A stretch of 64,000 bases of DNA from Fidelibacterota bacterium (GTDB lineage Bacteria; Fidelibacterota; UBA8477). The notes under the pieces are model-generated. The model was not told the origin of the DNA and searched no databases. It saw nothing but the letters and a program-made list of their open reading frames with translations. Every line of letters starts with the position of its first letter. The stretch's first letter is position 1. The translations under genes were made by a program, and so were the position numbers. Of the stretch, positions 3,823-22,162 are shown piece after piece. The stretch is taken from positions 2,136-66,135 of the forward strand of contig JAIPJQ010000002.1 of the NCBI GenBank assembly GCA_021734065.1, given 5' to 3'.

Positions 3823-4311
3823 TTAACCCTTACTCCGCTTGGGTTTGCGGGCATTTTCCAGCTCTCTAAGACGCGTTTTTAACGCGCCAAAACTATCAAA
3901 TATTTCAGTAACACATCCCAGAATCCAGGATGAAATTTTCTCACGGGGAATCTCACTCACCAGATACACCGGAATGTTGTGATAAAAAGCCAGTGTCAGT
4001 TCCCCCTGCGTTCCACCGCCGGCCATTACATATTCATCCCACTTGCAAATCATATAATCCGTGTGAAATAAAATATACTTAAGGTCTTGTTTTATAATAC
4101 GATGCATGACTTCCTGGAAGCGCGGGAAATCGGCATTTTTCCACTGTCGAAATTCCTTCTGCTCCCTTGCGGTTAATACACTGAACTCGTGATGAGTGGG
4201 ATCGTGAACCGTATGGTGCAGCTCATTTTCTAAATACGGACGCAGGCTCTCACGCCATTCCCGACCACCATCCGGGGCTGCTTCCATGGCACCAGCCAGA
4301 TAGACGTTCAT
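3823..4311 (-). CDS. Nucleoside 2-deoxyribosyltransferase-like (YtoQ-like Rossmann) protein
   Basis: 162 aa. N-terminal MNVYLAGAM... and AGGGTQGELTLAF resemble the NDT-like/YtoQ family. Its ATG overlaps the stop of the upstream ABC-2 permease (ATGA). Confidence 0.35.
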   Translation of the reverse strand: MNVYLAGAMEAAPDGGREWRESLRPYLENELHHTVHDPTHHEFSVLTAREQKEFRQWKNADFPRFQEVMHRIIKQDLKYILFHTDYMICKWDEYVMAGGGTQGELTLAFYHNIPVYLVSEIPREKISSWILGCVTEIFDSFGALKTRLRELENARKPKRSKG

Positions 4312-6026: not shown

Positions 6027-7055
6027 CTACGCCGGGTCTGAAGTTGACTCAACTTCCGCATCAATTTTTATGCCTAATTCATCAAATGCCACCCAACAAC
6101 GAGTACTCAAACCATTTTCTTGGTCATACGTCATCAGGGGCGGCTCAGCATGCTTACAACGCTCCTCCGCCACGGGACAGCGGGGATGAAATTTACAGCC
6201 TTCCGGAAACTCGGTCGGTACGGGAACAACGCCCTCGATAACTGCGAGACGACTAACCTTTTTCCTGGGATTGGGTATGGATTTTAACAACCCCTGGGTG
6301 TAGGGATGTTTGGGTGATTTAAAAATCGTCCGGATGTCGCCCTCTTCCACGATTTTCCCGGCGTACATAACAATAACCCGCTTGGTCACTTCTGCTATCA
6401 CACCCAGGTCGTGGGTGATGATAATCATCGACATATTGAATTGCTTCTGCAGGCCGGCTATTAATTTCAAAATCTGCGCCTGCACCGTTACATCCAATGC
6501 CGTGGTGGGCTCATCCGCAATCAGCAGTTTTGGGTTACAGGACAATGCCATGGCGATCATGACCCGCTGACGCATACCGCCGGACAACTGGTGGGGATAC
6601 TCATCAATTCGCTGCTCCGGCGCCGGGATTCCCACCAGTTTTAACATTTCAATGGCTCGTTTTTTCGCTTCGGTTTTATCAACATGTTGATGCAACCGAA
6701 TCGCTTCCATGATTTGATCACCACAGGTAAAAACCGGATTCAGCGAGGTCATGGGCTCCTGGAAAATCATGGAAATTTCATTTCCCCGGATCCGGCGCAT
6801 TCTCTCTTCCGGCAATGCGCGCACATCTATACCATCAAAAGTGATTTCTCCGCTGACGATCTCACCCGGTGGAATGGGGATTAGCCGCATGACCGACAGA
6901 GCGGTGACTGATTTACCGCAACCTGATTCCCCTACGATTCCCAATGTTTCACCCTTATCCACATGGAATGTCACATCATCCACCGCTTTGGCCAGTCCCT
7001 CTTCGGTGGAGAAAAAGGTCCTCAGGTTTTTTACATCCAGTAATCGTTCAGCCAA
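6027..7055 (-). CDS. oppD: Oligopeptide/dipeptide ABC transporter ATP-binding protein (OppD/OppF type)
   Basis: Walker A GESGCGKS, signature LSGGMRQR, Walker [13 protein letters not shown]. The C-terminal KHPYTQGLL plus Cys cluster CKFHPRCP...C is typical of the OppD/F C-terminal domain. Confidence 0.8.
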
Positions 7056-7096: not shown

Positions 7097-7921
7097 TTAA
7101 GCCCTTTCTGTCTGCTTGCCCCGTTCCCGGAATGCCTGTACACCCAGGAGAATCACGATAACGGCCAGCAACCAATAGGTCGCGTGATGATATTCAGAGC
7201 CACTGAACTGGATCAGATCGTAAAAGCGTCCAATGAGCAGAGAAATTCGTCCCATCACGGCAAATCCAAAGGCCGCACCAAAGGAGATCATGAGGAACCA
7301 GATTCCCACGCGACTGATTTTCCCGAACATCCCCGTGTGTTCTTTGGAAAAGAAAAAGTAAAACAAACCGGTAAGCGTGCCAATGATGATGAGAATGGAG
7401 TTAATAGCCGTACCCCAGCCGTCGAACAGCGGCAGTGCTGATCCCCGGACCTGGGCCAGAATATTGGAATTCAGGAATCCGTACAACCGGAGCCCGGCGG
7501 CCAGACCCACTACATACGCCATGGACCAGCGCGCCAGCCAACCCAGTTTGCGGGAAAGCCGGAACAGCATGAAAATCCCAAGGATAAATGGAACCATATA
7601 GACCAGATTCATTTCATGACCTTTGTCGATTCCACCCTCCGGGAAAATTCCACTGTGGAACCAACCGAAAAAGTCGTAGATACCATACCAGGCGGCCCTT
7701 AATCCACCCATTTCTCCATCCACTTTCGGCCACAAACGCCCAAACAAATTGGGCTGGATCTGCGTCCAGAAAAATGTACTGGCCCAGTACCCGGCCGAAA
7801 CACCCACAAACAGGTGTTCAGCGGCTTTATAAAATGGATTGTCTTTATAGAGAAAACTGAAAATTGCCAGGGTCAGGAAGACCGCGAACCAGGCACCAAT
7901 AATTTCTGTTGTAAACAACAT
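7097..7921 (-). CDS. Uncharacterised multi-pass membrane protein (about 7 TM helices)
   Basis: 274 aa, strongly hydrophobic, no family recognised. It belongs to the tightly packed block between oppC and oppD. Confidence 0.5.
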   Translation of the reverse strand: MLFTTEIIGAWFAVFLTLAIFSFLYKDNPFYKAAEHLFVGVSAGYWASTFFWTQIQPNLFGRLWPKVDGEMGGLRAAWYGIYDFFGWFHSGIFPEGGIDKGHEMNLVYMVPFILGIFMLFRLSRKLGWLARWSMAYVVGLAAGLRLYGFLNSNILAQVRGSALPLFDGWGTAINSILIIIGTLTGLFYFFFSKEHTGMFGKISRVGIWFLMISFGAAFGFAVMGRISLLIGRFYDLIQFSGSEYHHATYWLLAVIVILLGVQAFRERGKQTERA

Positions 7922-7936
7922 GCTCGATCCTCCTGA

Positions 7937-8788
7937 TTAATATTTCTTCTGAGAGCGTTTGCGTTCCAGGAAATAGGTAATATTCCCGAAAATAATGAAC
8001 AGCACGATCACCAGATGCGCGATGGACTGGGCATCCATTCCCGAGATTCCCAACCCTGGTTTCCCCACCAACGCTTCATATTCCGCGGCGCCCGGCATGC
8101 CCGCGATAACACCCCGCAACTGGCCTGCATTTTCATAAGGAATAATTTCATTCACCTGAATGGAAGCCGTACCAGTGGTCATGGGCACACCCGTGGGATC
8201 ACTGCCATACTGGACCCATTCCACGGTACCGGGATATCCGGCGGAAAAGCTGAATATCAGGTTAAAATCCTTGAGACTATACACACCTGCCATCATGGGA
8301 ATGGAATCCACCAGTGTATTTTGATAATCCACAGTGTAGAGCTTGCGCAAATTGCTGGCAATGCCCTTCACTACCGCCTCATTCCCGGGACGGAATCCCA
8401 ACAGCACATAATCTTCACCATAAACCGTATCGTACAGCGGCGCAATGGCGTTGAGTGCGTCAATTGCCATGAACTGACCATCGGGCCAGAGACAAACCAC
8501 GTAGACCTTGATACCTTTCAAAAAGGCATGGTGCAACACCGCTTCGGCCATGGGGTGAATTTCCGGTTTTGTACTGGGGCCGTATTCAAATGACATTAAC
8601 AACCGGTCACCCGCCTGCAATGAATCAACCGCATTGAATGAGCGTTGCGTCGTCTCCGTCGCCCGAATGGGTAAGCCCAAGGGTTTGAGAAGCGGAATGA
8701 GCACCACAATAGCGATGAGCAGGAAAATGACCCGGCGATCCACTTTCCCCAGTTTAATCAGAATTGTAATGAATTTATTTTTATCCAT
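7937..8788 (-). CDS. Uncharacterised membrane-anchored protein (N-terminal and C-terminal TM helices flanking a ~230-aa domain)
   Basis: The track ORF 7937..8824 begins at a TTG. The ATG at 8788 (MDKNKFITIL...) lies 4 nt after the upstream stop and is the preferred start. No family recognised. Confidence 0.5.
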   Translation of the reverse strand: MDKNKFITILIKLGKVDRRVIFLLIAIVVLIPLLKPLGLPIRATETTQRSFNAVDSLQAGDRLLMSFEYGPSTKPEIHPMAEAVLHHAFLKGIKVYVVCLWPDGQFMAIDALNAIAPLYDTVYGEDYVLLGFRPGNEAVVKGIASNLRKLYTVDYQNTLVDSIPMMAGVYSLKDFNLIFSFSAGYPGTVEWVQYGSDPTGVPMTTGTASIQVNEIIPYENAGQLRGVIAGMPGAAEYEALVGKPGLGISGMDAQSIAHLVIVLFIIFGNITYFLERKRSQKKY

Positions 8789-8792
8789 GGTC

Positions 8793-9815
8793 TTATTCCC
8801 CCATGAATGATTTTTCGATTCCAAGAATGATCCGCAAACTGGTGCCGATCATTCCCAACGCAATCCCAATCATGATCGCCCTTGCACCGGCGATATTGGG
8901 CACAGTATAAATCCACTCCTGCAGTACCGGCAGAAAGAGAAATCCCGGCTTGTCCACCGGCCAACCCGTCAGCGCGCCGGCAACAGTGACAATCAGAACA
9001 CCCGCGCCGACTACCGCGAAGGTGGTCATCTTGTTTTGCCACACGATGTTGGCACCAACACCAGCCGCCAGCACGATGAGATAGGCAATGAACCAGGCTG
9101 AGATATTGGAGCCGATAGGTACGCGTCCCAGCATGATAATGATTCCGGACAATAGCAGAAGTGTTGCTTCAAAATTCCGGATACGAAATGCGCGGTATGA
9201 TGCTGAAGCCACAAAAAATGCCAGCAACGCAAACATGGTGGCCGACATGGGTGTAAACAGGTATTTGAATAACCAATTAAATACGGTTCCCTCCGCTAGT
9301 AAGTGCTCACCCCAGGATTTTTCGCGCAGTTCAACCTGAACACCGGCTGCTTTCAACTTGCTGGCATACTCCTCCGCTCCCTTGGCGCTGATGAAAATGT
9401 GGCGCACATCGTAGGTATCACTGATTTCCAGCATGGGTGTGACTTGATCAATGGTCAACTGCTCCATCTCCGCCACCACCGGCGCGACCTGTTGGATATT
9501 GGCGCTTACATCCTGAATATGGACATAATTGGCGCCCTTCCAGAAAAAGCCGGCAGTGATTGCGAAGAAAAATCCCACCACCGCCAGAATGCTGTACTGC
9601 CAATCCTTCTTCTGCCTGATGATTTTGGTCATTTGCAGTTTTAATAAATTCAGTGCACCCAAAATAATGGCAAAGCTGGCGATAATGTCAAACCACTGGG
9701 TGGCGTCATCATTCACAAACCCCTCAAAGGTCGGTGAATCCACAAACCAGCCATACAGGGTGAGTATGCCTGTGATAAAAACAATCGCGATGGGAACTTG
9801 TCGTTTCCAGAACAT
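8793..9815 (-). CDS. Uncharacterised multi-pass membrane protein with a central soluble domain
   Basis: Start moved to the ATG at 9815 (MFWKRQV...), which is preceded by GGAGTAGGAGG 7 nt upstream. Its stop overlaps the start region of the next gene. Confidence 0.5.
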   Translation of the reverse strand: MFWKRQVPIAIVFITGILTLYGWFVDSPTFEGFVNDDATQWFDIIASFAIILGALNLLKLQMTKIIRQKKDWQYSILAVVGFFFAITAGFFWKGANYVHIQDVSANIQQVAPVVAEMEQLTIDQVTPMLEISDTYDVRHIFISAKGAEEYASKLKAAGVQVELREKSWGEHLLAEGTVFNWLFKYLFTPMSATMFALLAFFVASASYRAFRIRNFEATLLLLSGIIIMLGRVPIGSNISAWFIAYLIVLAAGVGANIVWQNKMTTFAVVGAGVLIVTVAGALTGWPVDKPGFLFLPVLQEWIYTVPNIAGARAIMIGIALGMIGTSLRIILGIEKSFMGE

Positions 9816-9823
9816 AACGCCTC

Positions 9824-10702
9824 CTACTCCACCCTTAGCCATTCTTTAAAATCAATGTCAATCCAGCCCAGATCGTGGACACCATTCAGAATAAAAACTA
9901 GCAAAATGGCAATCATGACGATGAATTTGCCCATGTCCTGCCCCTTCACGCTCCCCAACAAAGCCGGCTTTTGCGACAGGTAGGCAGATGCTGTTAAAAA
10001 TTCCTCACCGATCAGCGTGTAATCACAGGCCGTCACGAAAAATGGTATCTGGGAAGGTGATGCAGTCCCCGCAATCTGGATCGCACCAATGCTGTTTCCG
10101 GTCTCCGCCAGGATCAGTGACTCCGCATAAAATTTCCCCTGATAAAAACAGGCCGCCGGCTTCTCTCGCAACATGATGCCGTCCACACCGGCGGCATAGG
10201 CGAACTGCTCATCTGTGAGGTAATGAACCATATCGTCATTAAACAGGTCGGGCCGGCCCACCGACAGGTAGGATTCCTTCACAATTTCACGACCCGCTTC
10301 CATCACGATGGATCTGGACACCGGAACATTGAGATTGGTCTCATAGGTAGCGGTCATTTTGGCCACATGTCCCAGAATAATGACACCGGCGACGGTTTCC
10401 ACCTGATCCATATCCATAATACCCGGGACATACAGTACCGGCTTGCCCATTTCGGTCGCCCGACCGACGGCTTCATCAAAAGCTTTCAATCCCGGAATGA
10501 TTCTCAGATAGATTTTTTCACCACTATTGGCCCGGGCGATGTAATACAGAATGGTAATGGATAACGCCATGACGCACACGAACATGGTCAGCCGGTTACC
10601 ATTAAAATAGGGATGCCCAAACGCGTAATAGATAATGAACAGTACCGCGAAGATTCCGGCACCCATTAAGATTGCTTTTCCTGATTTCATACACCCTCCC
10701 AT
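9824..10702 (-). CDS. Uncharacterised membrane protein (2 N-terminal TM helices, ~200-aa soluble domain, 1 C-terminal TM helix)
   Basis: 292 aa, no recognisable family. Co-directional with, and adjacent to, the other membrane genes. Confidence 0.5.
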   Translation of the reverse strand: MGGCMKSGKAILMGAGIFAVLFIIYYAFGHPYFNGNRLTMFVCVMALSITILYYIARANSGEKIYLRIIPGLKAFDEAVGRATEMGKPVLYVPGIMDMDQVETVAGVIILGHVAKMTATYETNLNVPVSRSIVMEAGREIVKESYLSVGRPDLFNDDMVHYLTDEQFAYAAGVDGIMLREKPAACFYQGKFYAESLILAETGNSIGAIQIAGTASPSQIPFFVTACDYTLIGEEFLTASAYLSQKPALLGSVKGQDMGKFIVMIAILLVFILNGVHDLGWIDIDFKEWLRVE

Positions 10703-10765
10703 TGGTCAGATCAGTTGATCCGGCAACAACAACCTCAATACCTGAAGCTGCTGCGGGTTAAATCA

Positions 10766-11122
10766 TTACCGAACTTGCGTTCCGGTGCTGGATGATTGAC
10801 GCTCCGGAGTTTTCGGAGTGCCCGTATCCTGGATCTTTTTTTTTTCTTCTTCAAGGCGCTCAATCTCTGCTACCAGCACTTCCACATTGTGGTAGTCTTC
10901 CAGCAGCTCGGTGAGCTCGTAGTAGGTTTCCGCCCGCACAAAGGCGGTGAGAATGGGGCCGAAAAAAACCATGGTCTGGCTGCCGATAAACGCAAGCGGT
11001 TTCATCATTTCCAATGCCAAAACGGCTGGTACGGTCATCCCCCGCATCACGATTTTCTCGGCGATCCGGGTTAAGATAGCCGGATCCGGCGCTTTTAATG
11101 GTTTTTCGTTAAATCCCAGCAT
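10766..11122 (-). CDS. Small hypothetical membrane-associated protein
   Basis: 118 aa with a hydrophobic core and a Lys/Glu-rich tail. It contains an A10 run (plus-strand T10 at 10836..10845). Confidence 0.4.
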   Translation of the reverse strand: MLGFNEKPLKAPDPAILTRIAEKIVMRGMTVPAVLALEMMKPLAFIGSQTMVFFGPILTAFVRAETYYELTELLEDYHNVEVLVAEIERLEEEKKKIQDTGTPKTPERQSSSTGTQVR

Positions 11123-11133
11123 GTTGAAATTTT

Positions 11134-12261
11134 TCAGTCGGTTTCCACCATCTCCAAGTTAGCCCGTGGAACCGTTTTTACATCCCCATTTTCAAATTCA
11201 ATAACCGCCACACGCACCATGGTCTCCGATTCCATTTTCTGCAATTCCGGAGGCAACTCCTTCACATGCCCCAATTTTCCAAAATAGGGCGCCCGAATAA
11301 CGCGCACCAGCGAATCTTCCCCCATTCCGGCGGACATGTCATGCTGCTTTTCCGATTCGGCGGTTTCAGCCGGGAGTGTAATGACAATTTCCGGCCGAAT
11401 CACACCCGCCCGAATTTGCGTAGCGCCATTGAGTGAGGCAAAATGCCCATCATGAGATTTTAGCAGCTCAAAGGTGCGTCGCGCCATATTCACTTTCCCA
11501 AAACCCTCGGTGACCACCATTGTCGTGGCAAGATCTTCCGACCCGGTGATTGCCACACCCAATGTGTAGCCCAGGATTTCCTTCAGCTGATTATAGTCAA
11601 ATCCACCTGTAACGATGCCCGCTATACCAAGACTGACGGCCTTTCGGTAAGCCTCCAGGGAAACATAATTTCCACCCACAAGGATCTTTCCTTTGTACTC
11701 CGGCTTAATGTCATCCGGCTTCAACTCCTCTTTCCGGTCTGAAACCAGCAACTTCAGTTCACCGCGCGTCTCACCACCAATCCCAAAAATCCCCTGGATC
11801 AGGGCTGCTTTGGATTCAATAATAACACCCTCTTCCGGAAGCACTTCACGGACGACACCTGAAATGTACGCGTCCACCTCGACCGGGATGGGAGCCTCAC
11901 GAATTACCACCTGTCCGGTAGTACTGGAAATTTGCTCAATTGTACCATCGGTGGGCGAATCTACTTTGGACTTGAACAAGCCGAATATGCCGGCACTCTC
12001 AGCCAGCATCTCGCCCTGTTTGATCGTATCCCCGGCGGATTTTTTCATCATTTCAGGCACTTCGGACGCTTCAACGTTGAGCAAATTGGCAACATTGACC
12101 ATCTGCACATTTCCAGGCAGATTGGTGGAACACACAATGCTTTCCGGTTTGACCTCCACACCTTTCTCCACCGTAACCTTCCCCTTCAGGGGCAGGATTC
12201 GCGGCTTTCTTATCGTGGTGGCGTGTAAAACTTTTAATCCGGGCGTATACGCGTGTGCCAT
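11134..12261 (-). CDS. Hypothetical protein, partner of the GlmL-like ATPase
   Basis: 375 aa. Its ATG overlaps the upstream stop by 1 nt (TAATG). No family recognised. Confidence 0.5.
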   Translation of the reverse strand: MAHAYTPGLKVLHATTIRKPRILPLKGKVTVEKGVEVKPESIVCSTNLPGNVQMVNVANLLNVEASEVPEMMKKSAGDTIKQGEMLAESAGIFGLFKSKVDSPTDGTIEQISSTTGQVVIREAPIPVEVDAYISGVVREVLPEEGVIIESKAALIQGIFGIGGETRGELKLLVSDRKEELKPDDIKPEYKGKILVGGNYVSLEAYRKAVSLGIAGIVTGGFDYNQLKEILGYTLGVAITGSEDLATTMVVTEGFGKVNMARRTFELLKSHDGHFASLNGATQIRAGVIRPEIVITLPAETAESEKQHDMSAGMGEDSLVRVIRAPYFGKLGHVKELPPELQKMESETMVRVAVIEFENGDVKTVPRANLEMVETD

Positions 12262-14105
12262 TATTCGCCCTCACTTTCCGGATATTCGTTCATGGCTGTG
12301 GACCACTGATTCAATTTCTTGATACGCTCATCATGATTTTCAGGTAGTGAAAAAGGTTGACGACCGCGGGTGTCGAAGATCAGCCCCACCACACCGCCGT
12401 ACAAGTCCATTTCAATAGGTGTTCCTTTCCCTTTACCAAGATCAAGGTGTTTGTCCGGGATTAATTCCGCTTTGGTGATCTCATGGGGCGCTTCAATGAC
12501 TTCCAGAGTGCCGGGTAAATACTCTTTCTCCACCGTTGCACCATCCGGCAGAGTGAGTTTGGCCACCAGCGCCGGTTTTCCGGCCTTCATCTTCCCCACC
12601 GGTGCGATGCAGGTTCCCAATCGAATCAAACAATCTTTCTCGAACACTTCCAGCGCTGCCTTTTCGGCACTCTCACGAATGTCTGGTTTGTCCACATTGG
12701 CCAGTACGCCAAGCTGAGGCATCATGAAAATGGAATCCACCGCCAGTTGGGTAATTCCCTCCGGCAAGAACGCGTCAATCATCATTTTGGCGGATTGAGA
12801 CCGTCTGGGTGCGTGGGACAAGACACCGCCGGAACCCACCAACAAGTCCAGCTCCATCATATCCACCAATGTTTCACCCGAGCCGGACTGTTCGAACGCA
12901 TCTGAGATGGTGCGCTCCGTCTGGATACCTTTCAGGCTCACAGCAAAGGATTTATGCTGAATGAAGCTGAGTCGTAATGCCTCCCGGGCCAGCGCCTGCT
13001 CAATTTTCAATTCCTCCAGCGACTGCGGGATGGTGGTGGGCCGAATCATCTTATTGGCGATTCGATTGGCCAATTCCTTCTCGTCAATATCAAAGGACAC
13101 CCAGCGAATCACATTCTCAATTGTTGCTTCAGCCAGAACATTGGTGATGGAATAACTCATCCCCAGATTGGCTGAAACGGTGCGGTTAAATGTCTTTTTA
13201 AATACGGAAAAAACATCCGTGGTAGCGCCGCCGATATCCACGCCCACAACAGAGATATTATCCCGTTTGGCGATCATCTCAATTAACGCACCCACCGCTC
13301 CGGGCGTGGGCATGATTGGAGCATCGGTCCAGGTCATGAGTTTTTTATACCCCGGTGCCTGGGCCATCACATGCTCCATAAACAGGTCGTGGATTTTATC
13401 ACGGGAAGGGGTGAGATTTTCACGCTCCAGAACCGGACGAATATTTTCCACCACCGTGAGATCGGTGATGTCTCCCAGTGTTTCACGGATATTGTCCTGG
13501 GCTTTGTTGTTCCCGGCATAGATCACCGGCAGTTTATAACTGCTTCCCAGACGCGGTTTGGGTTTGGCTGCTTTCAGAATTTCAGCCAATTCCACCACGT
13601 GGCTGATGGTACCACCGTCGATACCACCTGACAGTAAAATCATATCCGGACGCAATTGACGGATGCGCTCAATCTTCTGGTGCGGAAGGCGGCCATCATT
13701 GGACGCCAGCACATCCATCACAATGGACCCGGCCCCCAAAGCAGCCCGCTGAGCACTCTCTCCGGTCATGGATTTCACCACACCGGCGACCATCATTTGC
13801 AATCCACCACCGGCAGACGACGTTGAGACATAGACGTCCACACCTTTGGGTTTACCTGCGCTGTCCTTCTCCGGTCTCAGAATGGTATCACCGTCCAGAA
13901 TCAAGCGCCCGGAAAGCTCTTCCACCTCACGTACGGCATTCAGTACACCCCGGGTTACATCTTCAAAAGGAGCCTCCACGGTAGTCGGAGCCTCACCGCG
14001 AGCAGTGAGACGGTATCCTTCGTCGGTCATTTCGATTAGGATGGCTTTGGTTGTGGTGGAGCCACAATCCGTTGCCAGTATTGATTTTAGTGTTATCTCA
14101 GACAT
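12261..14105 (-). CDS. ASKHA-superfamily ATPase resembling glutamate mutase subunit L (GlmL/MutL family)
   Basis: 614 aa. Phosphate-1 ATDCGSTTTKAIL, adenosine/connect motif LLSGGIDGGT and phosphate-2 GVDIGGATTDVF match the GlmL-like architecture. Confidence 0.55.
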   Translation of the reverse strand: MSEITLKSILATDCGSTTTKAILIEMTDEGYRLTARGEAPTTVEAPFEDVTRGVLNAVREVEELSGRLILDGDTILRPEKDSAGKPKGVDVYVSTSSAGGGLQMMVAGVVKSMTGESAQRAALGAGSIVMDVLASNDGRLPHQKIERIRQLRPDMILLSGGIDGGTISHVVELAEILKAAKPKPRLGSSYKLPVIYAGNNKAQDNIRETLGDITDLTVVENIRPVLERENLTPSRDKIHDLFMEHVMAQAPGYKKLMTWTDAPIMPTPGAVGALIEMIAKRDNISVVGVDIGGATTDVFSVFKKTFNRTVSANLGMSYSITNVLAEATIENVIRWVSFDIDEKELANRIANKMIRPTTIPQSLEELKIEQALAREALRLSFIQHKSFAVSLKGIQTERTISDAFEQSGSGETLVDMMELDLLVGSGGVLSHAPRRSQSAKMMIDAFLPEGITQLAVDSIFMMPQLGVLANVDKPDIRESAEKAALEVFEKDCLIRLGTCIAPVGKMKAGKPALVAKLTLPDGATVEKEYLPGTLEVIEAPHEITKAELIPDKHLDLGKGKGTPIEMDLYGGVVGLIFDTRGRQPFSLPENHDERIKKLNQWSTAMNEYPESEGE

Positions 14106-14132
14106 AAAACATGAACCACCATTTCAAACACT

Positions 14133-15167
14133 TTATTGCTTCAACCGCGGGTCTAGTGCATCACGCAATCCTTCACCCACCAGATTATAGACCGTTACCG
14201 TAATAAAAATCGCCAAACCCGGAAATGTGGTGAGCCACCATCCGCTGGGCAACATGTCCCGGGCACTGGATAACAACGACCCCCAGGTAGCCTGCTCCGG
14301 TGGCGCTCCAAATCCCAAAAAGCTCAGTCCCGACTCGATTAATATCGCCGCTGCCACACCAAATGTTGCCGTTACCAGCACCGGTGTGAGAGTGTTGGGA
14401 AGGACATGCCGAAAAATCGTCCGGAAATCGCTAAATCCCAAAGCCTTTGCAGCGGTGACATAGTCCTCGTTCTTCACCTTGAGGAATTCACCACGGGTAA
14501 ACCGGGCCACGCCGGTCCAGCCGGTCAGTCCTAAAATAATCATAATATTCACGATGGATTGCGTCTGCACCACCGCCACGATGGTAATGATGAGAAACAT
14601 GCGCGGGAAGGTGATCATCACCTCAATTAAGCGTTGGATGATGACATCCACCCAGCCGCCATAAAAACCGGCCAGCGCCCCCAGTATCATGCCAATTATG
14701 ACATAGATTGTTACGGCCACAAATCCCACCAATAGCGAAACCCGTGAGCCGTGAATCAGCTGTGATAACACATCCCGACCCAGTTCATCTGTGCCACACA
14801 GGTGAGTGGAATTGGGTGGTGACAATTTTCGCTTCAAATCATAGTCGTTGGGTCCGAAGGGAATTACCGGCCAGACTGCCCAGTCCCCTTCTTCAAATTT
14901 ATTCGTCAACAACTTCCACTGCTGTGTTTTGAAATCATCCTGCCACTGCATCCCAAGCCATTCCACACCATACTCACGCAGGACCGGCGCGTAATAGTCA
15001 CCTTTATACTTCATAATCAAAGGTTTGTCGTTGGCCAGGAAGTCAGCGAAGATGAATATAAACAGGAGCACATAGATCACATGCAGACTGTATAGCGCCA
15101 GTTTGTTGCGGCTGAATTGACGCTTGACGATATCCAGGTAGGAACGGGATTTCTTCTGCTGTTTCAT
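14133..15167 (-). CDS. oppC: Peptide ABC transporter permease (OppC/DppC type)
   Basis: 344 aa. Has an N-terminal extension before TM1 and the conserved permease segment ESGLSFLGFGAPPEQATWGSLL. Confidence 0.8.
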   Translation of the reverse strand: MKQQKKSRSYLDIVKRQFSRNKLALYSLHVIYVLLFIFIFADFLANDKPLIMKYKGDYYAPVLREYGVEWLGMQWQDDFKTQQWKLLTNKFEEGDWAVWPVIPFGPNDYDLKRKLSPPNSTHLCGTDELGRDVLSQLIHGSRVSLLVGFVAVTIYVIIGMILGALAGFYGGWVDVIIQRLIEVMITFPRMFLIITIVAVVQTQSIVNIMIILGLTGWTGVARFTRGEFLKVKNEDYVTAAKALGFSDFRTIFRHVLPNTLTPVLVTATFGVAAAILIESGLSFLGFGAPPEQATWGSLLSSARDMLPSGWWLTTFPGLAIFITVTVYNLVGEGLRDALDPRLKQ

Positions 15168-16552
15168 TACCGGTTCCCCTCGAATGTGATGCGGGGATCC
15201 ACCAACGCATACAGGATATCAGATATTAAAATCCCTGCCAGGGTCAGAATTGCACTGAGAGTGGATACAGCCATAATGATGGGATAATCGCGATACAGGA
15301 CGGCATTGAATGCCAGCTGACCGATACCGGGAATGGAGAAAATGCTTTCAATAATGATGGACCCGGAAATAGCCAATGGCAACAGATTGGCCAGCATGGT
15401 GATGATGGGAATCAATGAATTACGCAGCGCGTGTTTATACACCACAATCTTTTCCGATAAGCCTTTCGCCCGGGCGGTACGAATATAGTCCTGACGGATC
15501 ACCTCCAGCATGGAACCCCGCATATACCGGGATAATGCTGAAAAACTACCGTATGTCCAAATGATCAGGGGCAGGATAATGTGGTGCAACATATCCAGCA
15601 GATATCCTCCGCGCCCCATGTGCTCTGAACCAACACTGTGGAGCCCGGAGACAGGAAACCAATCCAGAAAGTCGCCACCGCCAAAGAAGACGATGGCCAT
15701 GGTGGCTACCCAAAAGTTGGGGAGGGAGTATAAAATAAACAGAATCACAGTGGTGACCTTATCCCCCAGTGTGTACTGGTGTGTGGCGGAGTAAATTCCC
15801 AGCGGAATGGCTACCAGATAAGCAATAATGAACGAGGTGAGTGTGAAAATCAGCGAGACCGGCACAGTCTCTTTGAAATGCTCCCAGACCGGCCGGTTAT
15901 CCTTGATGGAATTTCCGAAATCAAGCCGGATCATGCGCCCCAGCCACCGTGGGTATTGGGCGTCCGTGAGTATCATGGTGATTTTTTTCAGCGTGGAAAA
16001 TTGGTAGTTGGATTCATCGCCCGGCTGGAATACACCACTGGAATCCGTCTCACCATAATACCACTTGTTCACATAACTTCTGGAGGCTGCCAGTGTCATT
16101 TCCGGTGTGATGGAAAGTTTCTGCTTCAGGGTCAACACTTCCAGAATCGCACGCTGTTCCACCTCCGTCAGATCCTGGTTGATGAGTTGGTCAACCAAAA
16201 ACGGTACCGCCACATCATCAGCCTGTTTCAGCGGCTCCAGCGCATCGTCCCATTCTCTGGAATTCTGGTCCGGATTGGTGACGAGAAACTGGCGCACATC
16301 ATCCCAATCCGATTCATACATGAATACCTTGAAATTCAAGAGAACCGGTTTGTCCAGTCCATAGATTTCGCGAGTCTGTTCCACCACCTGCTTGGCCAGA
16401 TTCTGGTCGGATGCCAACCCGGTCTGCTGGCTGCCCATCTTGAATGCCGTAGGATCGCCGGGCGCCATTTTAATGATGATAAAAATGATAATAGAGATGC
16501 CAAAAATGGTGGGGAAAATGAGCAGAATGCGTTTGAGGATGTAATTAATCAA
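15167..16552 (-). CDS. oppB: Peptide ABC transporter permease (OppB/DppB type) with a large periplasmic insertion
   Basis: 461 aa. N-terminus MINYILKRILLIFPTIFGISIIIFIIIKMAPGDPT. Carries a ~190-aa insertion after TM1. Confidence 0.8.
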   Translation of the reverse strand: MINYILKRILLIFPTIFGISIIIFIIIKMAPGDPTAFKMGSQQTGLASDQNLAKQVVEQTREIYGLDKPVLLNFKVFMYESDWDDVRQFLVTNPDQNSREWDDALEPLKQADDVAVPFLVDQLINQDLTEVEQRAILEVLTLKQKLSITPEMTLAASRSYVNKWYYGETDSSGVFQPGDESNYQFSTLKKITMILTDAQYPRWLGRMIRLDFGNSIKDNRPVWEHFKETVPVSLIFTLTSFIIAYLVAIPLGIYSATHQYTLGDKVTTVILFILYSLPNFWVATMAIVFFGGGDFLDWFPVSGLHSVGSEHMGRGGYLLDMLHHIILPLIIWTYGSFSALSRYMRGSMLEVIRQDYIRTARAKGLSEKIVVYKHALRNSLIPIITMLANLLPLAISGSIIIESIFSIPGIGQLAFNAVLYRDYPIIMAVSTLSAILTLAGILISDILYALVDPRITFEGNR

Positions 16553-16612: not shown

Positions 16613-18466
16613 TCATGGCGCCATCCCCACTTGTGCTTCATTCGAACTCCGCCACCAGCTCACATTATTATACCCGGGACGTATGGGAATCCATTTTACA
16701 TCCTTAAATGCCCTATCATAAGCTCCGGGATCCCGCTGGTAGAACATGAAGGTGTAAGGCTGTTCCTCGTGGAGAATTTCCTGAAAGCGCCGATACATGC
16801 TGTCCCGCTTTGCTGCATTCATCTCATACCGGGCCGCCATGATCAACGAATCGGCTTCCGCATCCCTGAAGCCGATATAATTTGAACCCCGGTTCCCAAT
16901 GTTTTCCGAATGCCAGATCTGATAAGGATCAGACTGGAGCCCGCCAATCCAAAGCAGCATCACACAATCAAACTGCCGGTCACGGAGATTTTCAACATAA
17001 ACCGACCATTCCAACTGGCGGATTCCCACGACAATACCGATTTTCTGTAAATCTTCCTTCATCATGAGCGCCAGTAGCTTGGAGCCGCGGGAGCCGGCTG
17101 ATACGGAAAATATGAATTTGAAGGGAACACCGTCCTTATCACGAATACCGTCTCCGTCATGGTCAGTCCAACCGGCTTCGTCCAGTAATTCAACTGCCCG
17201 CTCAGGATCATAGGGCCAACGGGGAATTGTATCATTGTACTGCGGACTGAAGGGATAGAAGGGACCGATGGTGGGAATACCCAGATCATAGCCGATGTAC
17301 TTGTTGTAGGCATCCCGGTCGATGAGCATGGTCATGGCCTGTCGTACCCGCTTATCCCGGAAATAGGGCCGGTCATTATTCCACCCCACGTAACTGTAGG
17401 CCGGCACCACAAAGGTGACCTTCTGGAATTTCTGTAGAAAATCGGGTGTATTCGTCTGCTCGAAATACTGGATCGCCCGCATCCGTGGCAGAAAATCCAC
17501 ATCTCCTGCTTTCAATGCCGTGAGCATGGCAGTTGCATCACTGATGGACTTCACGATAATGGTATCCAGATATCCTGCTGCTTCGGCAAATCCGGGAATA
17601 TGGGGTTTCTCCGTGTTCCAGTAGTTTTTATTGCGGACCATCATCATGTACTCACCGGTAATCCAACGGTGAAATTTGTAGGCACCGCTTCCGATCAACT
17701 TCTCCGCATCCATTCCCGCCGGCCGATTCAACGGATTGGTATTGAAGGTGTCTGCCCACTCTTTGATGTCTGATTCATTGGTAAATACTTGCGGGTTTTT
17801 CAGGTCTTCGATACCGAACCGGTCCAGCATCCCGTCAGGGTCCCACTGGTGCTTGGGTAGTATCGCAAATCCGCCCATAAACTCAAGGTTCAGGAAGTAG
17901 GTGTCAGATGTGCGGATGATGAAGGTGTACTTATCCGGGGTTCTGGCTTCCACCACATTTCTGTAGTAGGCACGTAACGGCGCGTCATCAACATAAGGAT
18001 TCATAATCGCCTTCAGGGAAAAAAGAACATCTTCAGACGTAAGCGGTTTCCCATCATGCCAGGTGATATTCTCGTGGAGATGGAAGGTGTATGTTTTTTG
18101 GTCTTCGGAAATCTCGAAACTTTTTGCCAAAATGGGCCGATCATATTCCCAGGTGGTGTAATCGTAATTTACCAGCGGTTCATAGATATAATCTAAAAAT
18201 CGCTTGGCTGCTGCTGAAGTGGATGTGTAATAATTCAAATTTTCCGGTTCAGCAGACTCCGCCTTGATCAACGTCCCTCCCCGGCGTGGCGTTTCATCCG
18301 TTGGTGAGGAATTGAAGATTTTCACATCACCGGTGAGATCGACCTTCAAACCACCAGCTTGCCCTAAGATTTCATCATAATTACCGGGAGATTCCGTATG
18401 GATGAGATTGGTGAATAAAATCAGCAGTAACAGAACAGCGAGTTGTATCAGGATTGAGCGCTTCAT
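16613..18466 (-). CDS. oppA: ABC transporter substrate-binding protein, family 5 (OppA-like)
   Basis: 617 aa. Signal peptide MKRSILIQLAVLLLLILF. Size and position upstream of oppBC fit an OppA-type binding protein. Confidence 0.75.
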   Translation of the reverse strand: MKRSILIQLAVLLLLILFTNLIHTESPGNYDEILGQAGGLKVDLTGDVKIFNSSPTDETPRRGGTLIKAESAEPENLNYYTSTSAAAKRFLDYIYEPLVNYDYTTWEYDRPILAKSFEISEDQKTYTFHLHENITWHDGKPLTSEDVLFSLKAIMNPYVDDAPLRAYYRNVVEARTPDKYTFIIRTSDTYFLNLEFMGGFAILPKHQWDPDGMLDRFGIEDLKNPQVFTNESDIKEWADTFNTNPLNRPAGMDAEKLIGSGAYKFHRWITGEYMMMVRNKNYWNTEKPHIPGFAEAAGYLDTIIVKSISDATAMLTALKAGDVDFLPRMRAIQYFEQTNTPDFLQKFQKVTFVVPAYSYVGWNNDRPYFRDKRVRQAMTMLIDRDAYNKYIGYDLGIPTIGPFYPFSPQYNDTIPRWPYDPERAVELLDEAGWTDHDGDGIRDKDGVPFKFIFSVSAGSRGSKLLALMMKEDLQKIGIVVGIRQLEWSVYVENLRDRQFDCVMLLWIGGLQSDPYQIWHSENIGNRGSNYIGFRDAEADSLIMAARYEMNAAKRDSMYRRFQEILHEEQPYTFMFYQRDPGAYDRAFKDVKWIPIRPGYNNVSWWRSSNEAQVGMAP

Positions 18467-18477
18467 TATCCTTCAAT

Positions 18478-19314
18478 TCACGTGAGAAAGAAATATTTGA
18501 TATAAAAATAACTCAGAGGCACAGCGAAAAGCAGCGAATCCAGACGGTCCCAGGCACCCCCGTGCCCCGGAATCAGATTGGAGGAGTCTTTCACGCCCAC
18601 ATCCCGCTTCACCATGGATTCTGCGAAGTCCCCTACCTGCCCGAAAACACCGGCGATGATTCCCAGAATCAGAATGTCGGTGAAAGATAACTGCGGTATA
18701 AAACCCGAGATTACAAGTATGAACACCGTAAGAACCGCACCGACCAGGCCGGCCAGTGAACCTTCCCAGGATTTATTGGGGCTCACGCGGGAAAAAATCT
18801 TGTGCTTCCCGAATGCCGAACCAATGAGATAGGCAAGCATATCGCAAATCCAGACACTGAGAAACACCATCAGCACCAACCGTCCACCAAAACCACCCCA
18901 TTCCGTAAAATCGGGAGATTCCATGTTTCGCAGGAGGACGAATGTGGCCATCACCAGCCCCACAAAAACTGCACTCAAAAAGGTTACTGCCATATTTTCC
19001 AGAACGCGGTGAGCTTTGCGGAAAAGTTCTACAATAAACAGACCCACAACGGACAAATAGAGCAGCGCCGAAAAATCGGCATGGCCACCTCCCAACACGA
19101 CCACAAGCAGTGCCAGGTAAATGGCAAATCCCAAAATGACATTGGGACTTAAATCTTGCTTCTTCATGAGAGCGAAGATTTCATTCAGAACCAGTCCCCC
19201 GGCAATTATAAAGAAGATAGCGAAAGGCCATATGGTGAATAATGTGAGCGCTGCCAGCGCGGGAATGCCTAAAACAGTAACAATGGTGCGTATTTTAAAG
19301 TTCTGGAGCGTCAT
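18478..19314 (-). CDS. cdsA: Phosphatidate cytidylyltransferase
   Basis: 278 aa, multi-pass. Conserved RVSPNKSWEGSLAG signature. Confidence 0.8.
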   Translation of the reverse strand: MTLQNFKIRTIVTVLGIPALAALTLFTIWPFAIFFIIAGGLVLNEIFALMKKQDLSPNVILGFAIYLALLVVVLGGGHADFSALLYLSVVGLFIVELFRKAHRVLENMAVTFLSAVFVGLVMATFVLLRNMESPDFTEWGGFGGRLVLMVFLSVWICDMLAYLIGSAFGKHKIFSRVSPNKSWEGSLAGLVGAVLTVFILVISGFIPQLSFTDILILGIIAGVFGQVGDFAESMVKRDVGVKDSSNLIPGHGGAWDRLDSLLFAVPLSYFYIKYFFLT

Positions 19315-21429: not shown

Positions 21430-22162
21430 AAAGCTCCTCAAATAGTTGGGGCAACACCACACCGGAGGGTGCATGCATAGCCAGATCCGCGTGGGAGGTA
21501 AAAGGGGTTTGATCAGGATTAATTTCAATCACCACAGCACCGTTATTCCTGGCATCGAATGGAATTTGAGCGGCGGGATAAACCGCTGTAGACGAACCAA
21601 TCGTAAACAATACATCAACCTGCTGGACCTGCGTCATTGCGTCACTTAATGTCTGCACGGGGAGCGATTCACCAAACCACACCACGCCCGGACGCGCCAG
21701 GCCACCACAATCACACCGGGGAATTCCTTCCTTCGCGGGATCAAAAATCATCGGCACGTCCATTTCCTGCCTGCATTCCAGACAGCGGGTGATGAAAATA
21801 TTTCCGTGCAGTTCATAAATGTTCTGATTTCCGGCCTGTTTATGGAGCCCATCCACATTCTGCGTTATTACACAGGAATCGGGAAAAAGTTTCTGGAATT
21901 TGGTAATGGATGCATGACCCGGATTGGGTTTCACCGACATAATTTTTTCGCGACGGTAGAGGTACCAGTTCCACACCAATTCCGGATCAGCCTCAAATCC
22001 CTGCACACTGGCCAGCCGCATGGGGTCATACTTTGACCAGTAGCCGTCCTTGTCCCGAAATGTGGGGATCCCGCTCTCGGCAGAAATACCCGCACCGGTA
22101 AAAAACGCTATTCGGGTTTCAGGGGTGAATCGGCGGAGCAAATGGTCGGGTAGATTGGGCAT
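21413..22162 (-). CDS. cobB: NAD-dependent protein deacylase (Sir2 family)
   Basis: FFTGAGISAESGIPTFRD, catalytic His, and zinc ribbon CxxC...CxC. Confidence 0.85.
   Translation of the reverse strand: MPNLPDHLLRRFTPETRIAFFTGAGISAESGIPTFRDKDGYWSKYDPMRLASVQGFEADPELVWNWYLYRREKIMSVKPNPGHASITKFQKLFPDSCVITQNVDGLHKQAGNQNIYELHGNIFITRCLECRQEMDVPMIFDPAKEGIPRCDCGGLARPGVVWFGESLPVQTLSDAMTQVQQVDVLFTIGSSTAVYPAAQIPFDARNNGAVVIEINPDQTPFTSHADLAMHAPSGVVLPQLFEELYAALA

Follow-up and report, generated by a model that had tools for sequence, protein, structure and literature searches.

The seven-gene block and its flanks

Seven co-directional, closely packed open reading frames (7097-14105, minus strand), here called g1 to g7, lie between oppABC and an Opp-type ATPase gene in the window, by which we mean the whole 64 kb stretch of DNA that was analyzed. 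Gene calls and domain content agreed with the first-pass annotation on this layout. They also bore out its claim of a single Opp-type ATPase, with no second one retrieved by a tblastn search of the 64 kb window. The best NCBIfam matches of this ATPase were DppD/OppD, both under the cut-off. The features are listed below, the four opp flanking genes being outside the proposed system.

g1, 12261-14105, minus strand: 614 aa, PF13941 MutL, NCBI MCF7800475, named "glutamate mutase L"
g2, 11134-12261, minus strand: 375 aa, soluble partner of g1
g3, 10766-11122, minus strand: 118 aa, conserved hydrophobic hairpin and charged C-terminal helix
g4, 9824-10690 with the NCBI start (longest ORF to 10702), minus strand: 288 aa, PF20539 DUF6754
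g5, 8793-9815 with the NCBI start (longest ORF to 9842), minus strand: 340 aa, polytopic membrane protein
g6, 7937-8788 with the shorter start (longest ORF to 8824), minus strand: 283 aa, one transmembrane (TM) segment per end
g7, 7097-7921, minus strand: 274 aa, polytopic membrane protein
oppA (flank), 16613-18466, minus strand: SBP_bac_5
oppB (flank), 15167-16552, minus strand: BPD_transp_1 and BPD_transp_1_N
oppC (flank), 14133-15167, minus strand: BPD_transp_1 and OppC_N
OppD-type ATPase (flank), 6027-7055, minus strand: ABC_tran and oligo_HPY

The junctions first described were confirmed. Base 12261 is common to the g1 stop and the g2 start (TAATG), and with the NCBI starts the gaps are 8 nt for g4-g5 and 4 nt for g5-g6; the shorter-start proteins of g4, g5, and g6 (288, 340, and 283 aa) are exactly MCF7800472, MCF7800471, and MCF7800470. 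Given this one-base overlap in the window and a spacing of 19 nt in independent gene calls, g2 is predicted to be translationally coupled to g1. The gaps toward the flanking genes are 27 nt (oppC-g1) and 41 nt (g7-oppD). The surrounding array, initially given as about 19 kb from cdsA to an ABC-2 exporter, is indeed co-directional but longer, spanning at least recA (24009) to alr (2079), and it also holds recX, a sirtuin, a TPR protein, cdsA, and the ABC-2 exporter at gaps similar to those of the block. Because unrelated genes of the array are packed equally tightly, the junctions alone imply no functional link to Opp.

Domain content and predicted topology of g1 to g7

The assignment of g1 to the GlmL-like ASKHA ATPases was upheld. 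PF13941 matched g1 with 418 bits (cut-off, 27), above the gathering score for membership of Pfam MutL, with residues 9-473 covering model positions 1-439 of 450; a conserved C-terminal extension of ~140 aa follows the Pfam domain. The phosphate-1 motif D13-x-G15-S-T-T-T-K20, the phosphate-2 motif D290-I-G-G-A-T-T-D297, and the motif G424-S-G-G427 were invariant in 30/30 sequences from several phyla, and g1 conserves the phosphate-1, phosphate-2, and adenosine motifs that define the ASKHA superfamily. Mean column identity across phyla was 67% (30 sequences). On the strength of these invariant motifs and the PF13941 match, g1 is predicted to be an active ATPase of the GlmL/MutL family with intact catalytic motifs. 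Its scores were below the cut-offs of the NCBIfam GlmL equivalog NF040745 (228.6 vs 475), NF040744 (Or-4; 210.2 vs 600), and the subfamily model TIGR01319 (167.1 vs 204.05). Hydropathy gave no TM segment for g1, and no sequence relative was found in the PDB.

The second protein, g2, likewise has no TM segment by hydropathy, and its mean column identity is 69-78%. It consists of a barrel-sandwich hybrid, a swiveling domain, and an SH3/KOW-like domain. The middle domain was compared with the mobile domain of PEP-utilizing enzymes, which carries a catalytic phospho-histidine in a G-G-x-T-S-H motif. By hydropathy, g3 has a single weak TM segment or hydrophobic hairpin at residues 44-62; its gene occupies the g2-g4 interval in Marinimicrobia, and in Zixibacteria and Fermentibacteria it precedes g1.

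The remaining proteins had been described as four multi-pass membrane proteins, which is roughly right: hydropathy gave 3 TM segments in g4, 8 in g5, 2 in g6, and 5 above the threshold in g7, the two of g6 being separated by a large loop domain. The claim that none of the six partners of g1 belongs to a known family needs a small amendment: searches of Pfam, NCBIfam, and the PDB placed g2, g3, g5, g6, and g7 in no sequence family, but g4 belongs to the uncharacterized DUF6754, as PF20539 scored 387.7 bits against a gathering cut-off of 27. DUF6754 itself is a Pfam family without a described function. Two N-terminal TM segments, a very conserved region of ~200 aa, and one C-terminal TM segment make up g4, for which AF2 modeling was unsuccessful (pLDDT, 56.7). 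Relatives of g4 fell into 2020 representative clusters (50% identity level) at E ≤ 1e-3, with 49-75% identity over the domain among the matches listed. Homologues from other phyla carry N-terminal extensions led by signal peptides, with a BamB-like PQQ propeller in 20/69 and fn3 domains in 4/69, and these extensions place the conserved ~200-aa region on the predicted cytoplasmic side.

In g5, a lineage-specific insert at about residues 102-194 is predicted to be periplasmic; the core form has about 205-240 aa, and 272-aa forms without the insert occur. No Pfam family was found for g5, including among precomputed matches of a newer Pfam release. The TM segments of g6 (32-50 and 268-286) enclose a domain of ~217 aa, predicted to be periplasmic from the positive-inside rule and the K/R-rich ends (8 and 5), and g6 had no Pfam or PDB match. 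Among the invariant residues of g7 are D27, N28, E35, R131, R225, and R232, the charged ones lying in or near membrane segments, and g7 also has a conserved YFFFSKEHxG motif; none of 31 family members (0/31) had a significant or consistent Pfam match, and no PDB match was found. Taken with hydropathy, the positive-inside rule, and the g4 extensions, these features predict that proteins of the block span the inner membrane.

Conservation and gene neighborhoods in related loci

Two sets of loci were compared, one of 80 genome loci in which all ORFs were clustered and one of 80 g2-centered metagenome loci. The only genes conserved around each other in these 160 related loci were the seven families g1 to g7, plus c19 in some. 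Within the first set, g4 (73/80), g5 (69/80), g6 (64/80), and g7 (59/80) were more frequent than g2 (36/80), g3 (33/80), and g1 (32/80), and the next commonest family, cdsA, was found in 16/80 loci, nearly all from Marinimicrobia; the same partner families recurred in the second set. The loci come from Marinimicrobia, Zixibacteria, WOR-3, Fermentibacteria, Aegiribacteria, Coatesbacteria, and Eisenbacteria, and the synteny spans at least seven phylum-level groups. The first-pass annotation had named a lack of synteny in relatives as grounds for abandoning its proposal of a novel system; the opposite was observed, and the comparison supports the seven genes as a syntenic, conserved, uncharacterized, membrane-associated system. 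We also found no publication on the block, in line with the belief that it had not been described before, and no paper in our literature search mentions DUF6754, PF20539, or PF13941.

The genes g4-g5-g6-g7 were always found as a set. Zixibacteria-type loci (L039, L045, L063, L067, L081, and L099 among others) carry two or three paralogous copies of this set in tandem but a single g1-g2 pair. WOR-3 loci have the module with no g1-g2 in the surrounding 10 kb; of the well-flanked g2 loci, about half have no module nearby, and 7/19 have no g1 nearby. The pair and the module are thus not invariably adjacent. Where lineages have the block dispersed, g2 lies amid housekeeping genes (accA, era, prfA, and prmC among them), which, together with the extreme conservation of g1, g2, and g4, suggests that the block serves a core function.

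In most Marinimicrobia (about 15 loci), cdsA leads directly to g1, and independent gene calls for the abundant marine type gave the order TPR-DHODH-SpoU-DPBB-lipid kinase-cdsA-g1..g7. Only the window, L011, and L012 have oppABC in the interval from cdsA to g1, and oppABC upstream plus oppD downstream was found only in the window and L011, between which OppA is 38% and OppD 66% identical. In seven Marinimicrobia loci, including the window, a solo Opp-type ATPase comes directly after g7 and belongs to one of two paralogous types: orthologues of the window oppD (66-67% identical) in L007, L009, and L011, and a paralogous type (~42% identical) in L003, L006, and L017. No opp genes adjoined the block outside Marinimicrobia in the loci compared. 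The neighborhood conservation anticipated at first was therefore found for g1-g7 across phyla but not for their co-occurrence with opp genes, by which membership in the Opp system would be judged, and the notion of a machine "fused into" an Opp operon as a meaningful unit fails. The SBP_bac_5, BPD_transp_1, and ABC_tran/oligo_HPY domains, which the flanking genes do match, were found in 0/7 block proteins.

The block also neighbors envelope systems. In Zixibacteria, g1-g2 adjoins a complete Tol-Pal cluster, with the order g1-c56-g2 followed by TolQ-TolR-TolA-TolB-Pal-CpoB in L087, L089, L100, L106, L108, L063, and L076; given a spacing of about 0.5 kb from g2, the Tol-Pal cluster is probably on a separate transcript. 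A TonB-dependent receptor and ExbB-ExbD-TonB follow g7 in Fermentibacteria and Aegiribacteria, and ExbB-ExbD-ExbD-TonB lies downstream of the block in WOR-3. These amount to roughly three independent arrangements, and the adjacency is no more than suggestive of an envelope link. A tblastn search found no Tol/Ton genes near the block in the window, and no search, including Pfam, found homology of g1-g7 to TolQ/ExbB, TolR/ExbD, TolA/TonB, TolB, or Pal.

Candidate functions of the block

An accessory role in the Opp importer, for instance replacing the missing OppF or adding gating or processing, would account for the short gaps between the block and its opp neighbors in the window and L011, an arrangement that survived the divergence of OppA and OppD, and for the solo ATPases behind g7. 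However, most Marinimicrobia loci and all loci of other phyla have the block without a nearby opp gene, L012 has oppABC yet no oppD after g7, ABC-transporter domains are absent from g1-g7, and unrelated housekeeping genes share the tight packing. Distribution largely refutes such a role, which we consider very improbable. Besides adjoining each other in the window, the block and Opp/Dpp importers are alike as multi-subunit inner-membrane systems with a periplasm-facing part and a cytoplasmic ATPase (predicted for the block), but they have no sequence relationship, the ATPases have an actin fold and a P-loop, respectively, and the adjacency is confined to one Marinimicrobia sub-lineage. No more probable is a chaperone role, in which g1 and g2 would reactivate a cofactor-dependent enzyme (a B12 mutase, for example) in the manner of GlmL, the membrane genes being incidental. 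The known systems nearest to this are the GlmL/MutL accessory protein of glutamate (methylaspartate) mutase and the related Or-4 and EutA/DdrA-type reactivases, which are chaperone-like ASKHA ATPases; g1 matches PF13941 strongly and retains every ASKHA nucleotide-binding motif, and the swiveling domain built into DdrA resembles that of g2. Diol dehydratase reactivases (DdrA/DdrB) pair an ASKHA ATPase with a swiveling domain through which the client is engaged. GlmL proper is encoded with B12-dependent mutase subunits (glmS/glmE, oraS/oraE). In contrast, g1 scores far under the equivalog cut-offs and also under TIGR01319, has its own C-terminal extension, and has no B12-dependent mutase subunit gene in the block or among the conserved neighbor families of the 160 loci; its sole conserved partners are five orphan proteins and one DUF, a set that includes four integral membrane proteins, and in many phyla g1-g2 and the membrane module are kept in synteny.

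A polymerizing actin-like g1, forming with the other proteins a cytoskeleton and membrane anchor that would act in cell shape or division as a scaffold resembling an elongasome or divisome, is unlikely, although several features fit it: the actin/Hsp70 (ASKHA) fold family of g1, the extreme conservation and housekeeping neighbors, the adjoining Tol-Pal cluster of Zixibacteria (Tol-Pal acts in cell division), and the RlpA-like DPBB gene upstream in Marinimicrobia. In PilM-PilN-PilO, GspL-GspM, and MreB-MreC-MreD/RodZ, an actin-fold protein is docked on bitopic or polytopic membrane partners, and the block recalls this layout of a cytoplasmic ASKHA-fold protein and membrane proteins with periplasmic domains. 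However, we know of no polymerization among GlmL/MutL relatives, no MreB, FtsA, or PilM model matched in Pfam or NCBIfam, subunit number and topologies are unlike, and the two to three paralogous modules with variable periplasmic domains better fit diversification of substrates or partners. That the block is a divergent Rnf/Nqr-type redox complex translocating ions is disfavored and less probable than either the Opp or the chaperone role. This reading draws on a single small domain, the first of g2, which has the NqrA/RnfC N-terminal barrel-sandwich hybrid fold, but Fe-S, flavin, and NADH-binding domains and NqrB-F/RnfADEG homology are absent from all seven proteins, and Rnf/Nqr offers no counterpart of the ATPase g1. 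Least probable is a chance grouping of seven unrelated housekeeping genes, or a recent cassette, in a long co-directional array that does mix unrelated functions. It is rejected on the conserved synteny; moreover, the block shows no GC anomaly, no repeats or tRNA genes were found flanking it, and the flanking genes scanned contain no integrase or transposase domains.

We therefore favor, at somewhat better than even confidence, a self-contained ancient gene cluster encoding an autonomous, ATP-driven, envelope-spanning inner-membrane machine that is not an Opp accessory. Established above are the synteny and conservation of the genes, their domain content and predicted topology, and their independence from Opp; we infer that the proteins form a physical complex, that it is coupled to ATP, and what kind of cargo it handles. 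The cytoplasmic pair would comprise the ASKHA ATPase g1 and the three-domain adaptor g2, with g3 as a small membrane-hairpin protein, perhaps a tether for g2, and g4-g7 as an inner-membrane module of four subunits. This module would face the cytoplasm with the conserved g4 region and the periplasm with the g6 domain and the g5 insert, to which other phyla add the beta-propeller/fn3 extensions of g4. ATP would be hydrolyzed by g1, g2 would relay the movement so produced to g4 at its cytoplasmic region, and g4-g7 would turn it into work across the inner membrane. The g1 motifs and the swiveling domain of g2, by analogy with the reactivases, make ATP-driven conformational "prying" of a partner protein a plausible working principle. 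The work may consist in transporting or remodeling an imported substrate or a component of the envelope, functionally close to the Tol-Pal/Ton systems, beside which the block repeatedly lies. The block is predicted to resemble those systems in reaching both faces of the inner membrane and, in some phyla, in having a periplasmic beta-propeller; they differ in running on proton-motive force, whereas the block carries an ATPase. As many as three paralogous membrane modules could share a single g1-g2 pair, much as shared ABC or ECF energizing modules use one ATPase for several membrane modules of different transporters. As counterpoints, the adjacency of g1-g2 and the module is not universal, Tol/Ton genes are absent near the window block, and the role proposed for GlmL relatives is that of a chaperone for B12 mutases rather than a membrane energizer.

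Collectively, the observation made in the first-pass annotation was confirmed and its interpretation partly supported. As parts of the reading that we favor, and with the same modest confidence, the embedding among opp genes would be a local accident of gene order in this Marinimicrobia lineage, and the cluster would count as a core trait of several FCB-group phyla, which are mostly uncultured.

Gene order and conservation of the block

The seven genes of the block (g1 to g7) carry the locus tags K9N34_00485-00515 of a Marinimicrobia/Fidelibacterota MAG, in which NCBI lists six of them as "hypothetical protein" and only g1 by name, as "glutamate mutase L". g2, g3, g5, g6, and g7 were also absent from the precomputed matches of a newer Pfam release.

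Genes of the window in order (ORF list and domain scans, unless a match is given)
before cdsA, minus: recA, recX, sirtuin, 692-aa TPR protein
18478-19314, minus: cdsA
16613-18466, minus: oppA
15167-16552, minus: oppB
14133-15167, minus: oppC
12261-14105, minus: g1, 614 aa; Pfam MutL/GlmL PF13941, 418 bits
11134-12261, minus: g2, 375 aa; ORF without Pfam or NCBIfam match
10766-11122, minus: g3, 118 aa; ORF without Pfam or NCBIfam match
9824-10702, minus: g4; DUF6754 PF20539, 388 bits
8793-9842, minus: g5; ORF without Pfam or NCBIfam match
7937-8824, minus: g6; ORF without Pfam or NCBIfam match
7097-7921, minus: g7; ORF without Pfam or NCBIfam match
6027-7055, minus: Opp/Dpp-type ATPase (oppD)
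after the Opp-type ATPase, minus: ABC-2 ATPase and permease, 162-aa protein, alr

The tight junctions described in the first-pass annotation were correct: base 12261 is common to the stop of g1 and the start of g2, and the shorter starts of g4 (10690), g5 (9815), and g6 (8788) correspond exactly to the deposited NCBI proteins, with gaps of 8 and 4 nt. The gaps at the opp flanks are 27 nt (oppC-g1) and 41 nt (g7-oppD), and the window does contain a single Opp-type ATPase, with no second one.

The DUF6754 family of g4 comprises 2020 representative clusters at 50% identity; the relatives listed were 49-75% identical over the domain, and the signature gave at least 590 matches with one genome per species. 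According to the titles of the deposited records, from which all taxon names are taken, the best 80 of these matches are from Marinimicrobia, Zixibacteria, WOR-3, Stahlbacteria, Eisenbacteria, Coatesbacteria, Aegiribacteria, and Fermentibacteria, together with a few bins otherwise labelled. Related loci (L numbers) were taken from two scans, as the best 80 of the at least 590 DUF6754 matches and as 80 metagenome loci around a non-Marinimicrobia g2, a choice that biases each sample to close relatives of its query. ORF calling in these loci was naive (longest ORFs with an overlap filter), and at least one gene was mislabelled (g1 in L146).

Unsupervised clustering of all ORFs, in agreement with tblastn using all window proteins, revealed g4 (73 loci), g5 (69), g6 (64), g7 (59), g2 (36), g3 (33), and g1 (32) as the only conserved families in the best 80 DUF6754 loci, the counts of g1-g3 being held down by contig ends. 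The next family was cdsA (16 loci, nearly all Marinimicrobia). Identical partners were found in the metagenome set. Since the same families are conserved in both locus sets, the block is a real and ancient functional unit of seven genes, or eight in some phyla, under very strong purifying selection. Synteny in related genomes was thus upheld, and the chance insertion that the first-pass annotation had considered is not what these loci display. Insertion by a mobile element was likewise rejected, as the block shows no GC shift, flanking direct or inverted repeats, or tRNA gene. Elsewhere the genes are dispersed, with g2 amid accA/era or prfA/prmC; another partner system for stand-alone g2 was discarded, since its neighbors are common housekeeping genes: accA, era, prfA, prmC, and the gene of a cNMP-binding protein.

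The opp flanks

The block had been described initially as a novel membrane machine fused into an oligopeptide transporter operon. A functional fusion with the Opp operon did not hold up, the opp flanks being a lineage-specific gene order that is stable inside one sub-clade. g1 comes directly after cdsA in about 15 Marinimicrobia loci, and independent gene calls in the abundant marine type gave TPR-DHODH-SpoU-DPBB-lipid kinase-cdsA-g1..g7, then guanylate cyclase. oppABC between cdsA and g1 is confined to three loci (the window, L011, and L012), and L012 has no oppD after g7. Solo Opp/Dpp-type ATPases with oligo_HPY directly follow g7 in seven Marinimicrobia loci, including the window.

Solo Opp/Dpp-type ATPases directly after g7
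window, 6027-7055, minus
L003:3617-4513
L006:13541-14512
L017:13562-14533
L007:13656-14657
L009:9360-10343
L011, c. 13798-14769

These ATPases form two paralogous groups with about 42% mutual identity, as expected of OppD versus OppF. oppABC is missing upstream in L006 and L017, unrelated genes come after the ATPase in L017, and no opp genes were found beside the block in loci outside Marinimicrobia. It is therefore very probable that the block is an autonomous conserved system and not a part of Opp. Unrelated neighbors in the array are packed equally tightly. The opp flanks and the block may nevertheless be co-transcribed in the window organism; no terminator-like sites stood out in the inter-gene gaps, where counts at or below shuffled expectation are uninformative on co-transcription.

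Several flanking genes have features of their own. OppB (15167-16552) is unusually long (461 aa), with about 170 residues separating its N-terminal domain (1-79) from the permease domain (248-456); its orthologue in L011 (367 aa) is without most of this stretch. The 692-aa TPR protein upstream of cdsA (19450-21528) has TPR_6 and YfiO/BamD-like matches and weak similarity (E 0.01) to a Zixibacteria CpoB-like protein, and a relative of its gene stands first in the conserved Marinimicrobia array, in which the DPBB protein is RlpA-like. The 162-aa protein after the ABC-2 permease (3823-4311), with only a weak nucleoside 2-deoxyribosyltransferase-like match, is conserved in L012 at the identical position (57% identity).

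Protein anatomy, module copies, and neighbors

No hydrophobic segments were found in g1 or g2. The ASKHA nucleotide-binding motifs of g1 did not vary across 30 orthologues of several phyla, with 67% mean column identity over the full length, and the C-terminal domain of g2 is a KOW/SH3-like barrel, as in NusG/Spt5, PetP, NdhS, and PsaE. Judged by its sequence, g1 is an intact ASKHA ATPase, with predicted activity, that is translationally coupled to the three-domain soluble partner g2. g3 combines a single conserved hydrophobic hairpin with a charged tail.

Topology in the block was derived from hydropathy and the positive-inside rule alone. g4 has two transmembrane (TM) segments at its N-terminus, about 200 very conserved residues, and one TM segment at its C-terminus. 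Its homologues in other phyla begin with a signal peptide and an extra domain before the conserved TM segment (a BamB-like PQQ propeller in 20 of 69 homologues, fn3 in 4 of 69), which places the conserved residues in the cytoplasm. g6 has a TM segment at either end, and its K/R-rich termini indicate that the middle domain of about 217 aa should be periplasmic. Eight hydrophobic segments were counted in g5 and five above threshold in g7, which has the invariant charged residues D27, E35, R131, R225, and R232. Together, g4-g7 constitute a membrane module of four subunits, with domains predicted on both its cytoplasmic and its periplasmic side. An insert in g5 (residues ~102-194; gene 8793-9815) is lineage-specific and periplasmic, and is missing from the 272-aa forms of many other Marinimicrobia and the ~210-aa forms of other phyla.

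The AF2 model of g4 had a pLDDT of 56.7, and below 50 in the conserved region, likely because the alignment was shallow, with all sequences at least 67% identical. Although g4 and g6 look alike by eye, paralogy among the seven proteins was rejected (21 of 21 profile-profile comparisons at or below 1.9% probability). Comparison of N- and C-terminal halves by hhalign gave no internal repeats in g4-g7, and PDB sequence searches with profiles or single sequences of g1, g2, g4, g6, and g7 returned nothing significant. Weak Pfam matches of g7 proved to be scattered chance matches across 31 orthologues, and no cross-family ("Rosetta stone") fusions occurred among 150 DUF6754 representatives and odd long ORFs.

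In the loci examined, g4-g5-g6-g7 always move together as a set. Zixibacteria-type loci hold two to three tandem copies with differing periplasmic g4 extensions, alongside single g1-g2 (and g3); the module is triplicated beside a single g1-g2 pair in L039, L045, L048, L052, L057, L062, L063, L067, L070, L081, and L099. Some phyla thus have several modules per ATPase pair. A further protein without a Pfam match, c19, is about 140 aa long and has two TM segments and, in a conserved C-terminal domain, the motif SPF..PSRL..FRG. Its gene lies ahead of g3-g1 in Zixibacteria, Fermentibacteria, Aegiribacteria, and two Marinimicrobia-like loci; tblastn found none in the window. Tandem g1-g2 pairs, two each with g3 between, occur in L124:33-4606 and L137:64-5451, where the first g2 copy has a duplicated N-terminal barrel-sandwich region (475 aa in L137).

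Recurrent arrangements in related loci
L039:10001-19948: triplicated module (example), DUF6754 subunits with different periplasmic N-terminal extensions
L039:2579-3031; L067:4989-5444; L080:5690-6109; L019:8725-9171; L020:8731-9171: c19
L087, L089, L100, L106, L108, L063, L076 (example L089:2072-11035): g1-c56-g2 and Tol-Pal
L038, L046, L053, L055 (example L053:13000-17971): WOR-3 module and ExbB/ExbD/TonB

Seven Zixibacteria-type loci carry g1, the periplasmic anchored protein c56, and g2, followed after a gap of about 0.5 kb by TolQ, TolR, TolA, TolB (TolB_N and PD40), Pal (OmpA family), and a CpoB-like TPR protein, a complete Tol-Pal cluster first predicted from gene sizes and afterwards confirmed. 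Two to three g4-g7 modules lie divergently upstream on these contigs. In Fermentibacteria and Aegiribacteria, g7 is followed by a TonB-dependent receptor, ExbB, ExbD, and TonB, and in WOR-3 by a DUF4388 protein, four conserved genes (the three scanned had no Pfam family), ExbB, two ExbD, and TonB. The four WOR-3 loci have no g1-g2 within 10 kb on either side.

Naming, mechanism, and rival readings

GlmL/MutL is the nearest named family of g1, which falls inside the Pfam family but fails the equivalog and subfamily thresholds, scoring under every NCBIfam GlmL-type cut-off, and is not encoded beside the mutase genes that define GlmL. "Glutamate mutase L", the deposited name (12261-14105), is probably misleading, since the 160 loci contain no mutase genes and the score is under the GlmL equivalog cut-off. 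DUF6754 provides g4 with a name to which no function is attached. Literature searches found no paper on DUF6754, PF20539, or PF13941, and nothing relevant on GlmL with ASKHA, GlmL with glutamate mutase, the carrier phyla jointly, or Marinimicrobia with Tol-Pal. As nothing beyond GlmL/MutL and DUF6754 could be assigned either, we rated the cluster, from the absence of matches and its conserved context, as apparently outside known kinds of system.

We propose that g1-g2, tethered by g3, dock onto the cytoplasmic region of g4, and that ATP used by g1-g2 would be converted into conformational work in g4-g7. This work may act on the envelope or drive uptake across it, given the recurrent Tol-Pal/Ton neighbors, the BamB-like propellers, and the lipid-gene neighbors (cdsA, lipid kinase) in Marinimicrobia. 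A novel ATP-energized envelope machine or transporter is a tentative reading, to which we give less than an even chance. The fuller reading, a new class of ASKHA-powered envelope machine that acts with Tol-Pal/Ton and belongs to the core of FCB-group phyla, is held just as cautiously. A GlmL-type actin-fold ATPase with a swivel-domain adaptor would here take the place of a P-loop ATPase or proton-motive force and energize one to three interchangeable four-subunit inner-membrane modules, which, together with Tol-Pal/Ton, would move or remodel either an imported substrate or a component of the envelope. Such a machine would be core, and possibly essential, in Marinimicrobia, Zixibacteria, WOR-3, Fermentibacteria, and related FCB-group phyla.

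The main rival, a cytoskeleton- or divisome-like scaffold, appears unlikely. PilMNO, GspLM, and MreBCD, in which actin-fold proteins dock on membrane partners, are loosely similar in layout with no detectable homology, and the same is true of shared-ATPase transporters and of reactivase chaperones. With no mutase beside it, a GlmL reactivase is highly improbable, and an Rnf/Nqr-like complex is given at most a very slight chance. An accessory role in Opp, suggested by the opp flanks in the window, is scarcely credible for a block that lacks them outside Marinimicrobia, and assembly by chance has a minimal probability at best against the synteny observed. The Bat aerotolerance operon, whose vWA proteins have TM segments at both ends, was set aside because its Pfam signatures are absent, as were GldF/GldG, Mla/Lpt/MCE systems, and exosortases.

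Read literally, the name "glutamate mutase L" would lead metabolic reconstructions of these uncultured phyla to include glutamate fermentation in error. DUF6754 carriers include SAR406/Marinimicrobia, which are among the most abundant deep-ocean bacterial groups. The proteins of the block are as conserved as core cell machinery, but no role is known for any of the seven and five belong to no family. Should the ATPase indeed drive the membrane module, bacteria would have a new way to power inner-membrane work, and the GlmL/MutL branch of the actin/Hsp70 superfamily, so far poorly understood, would gain a function.
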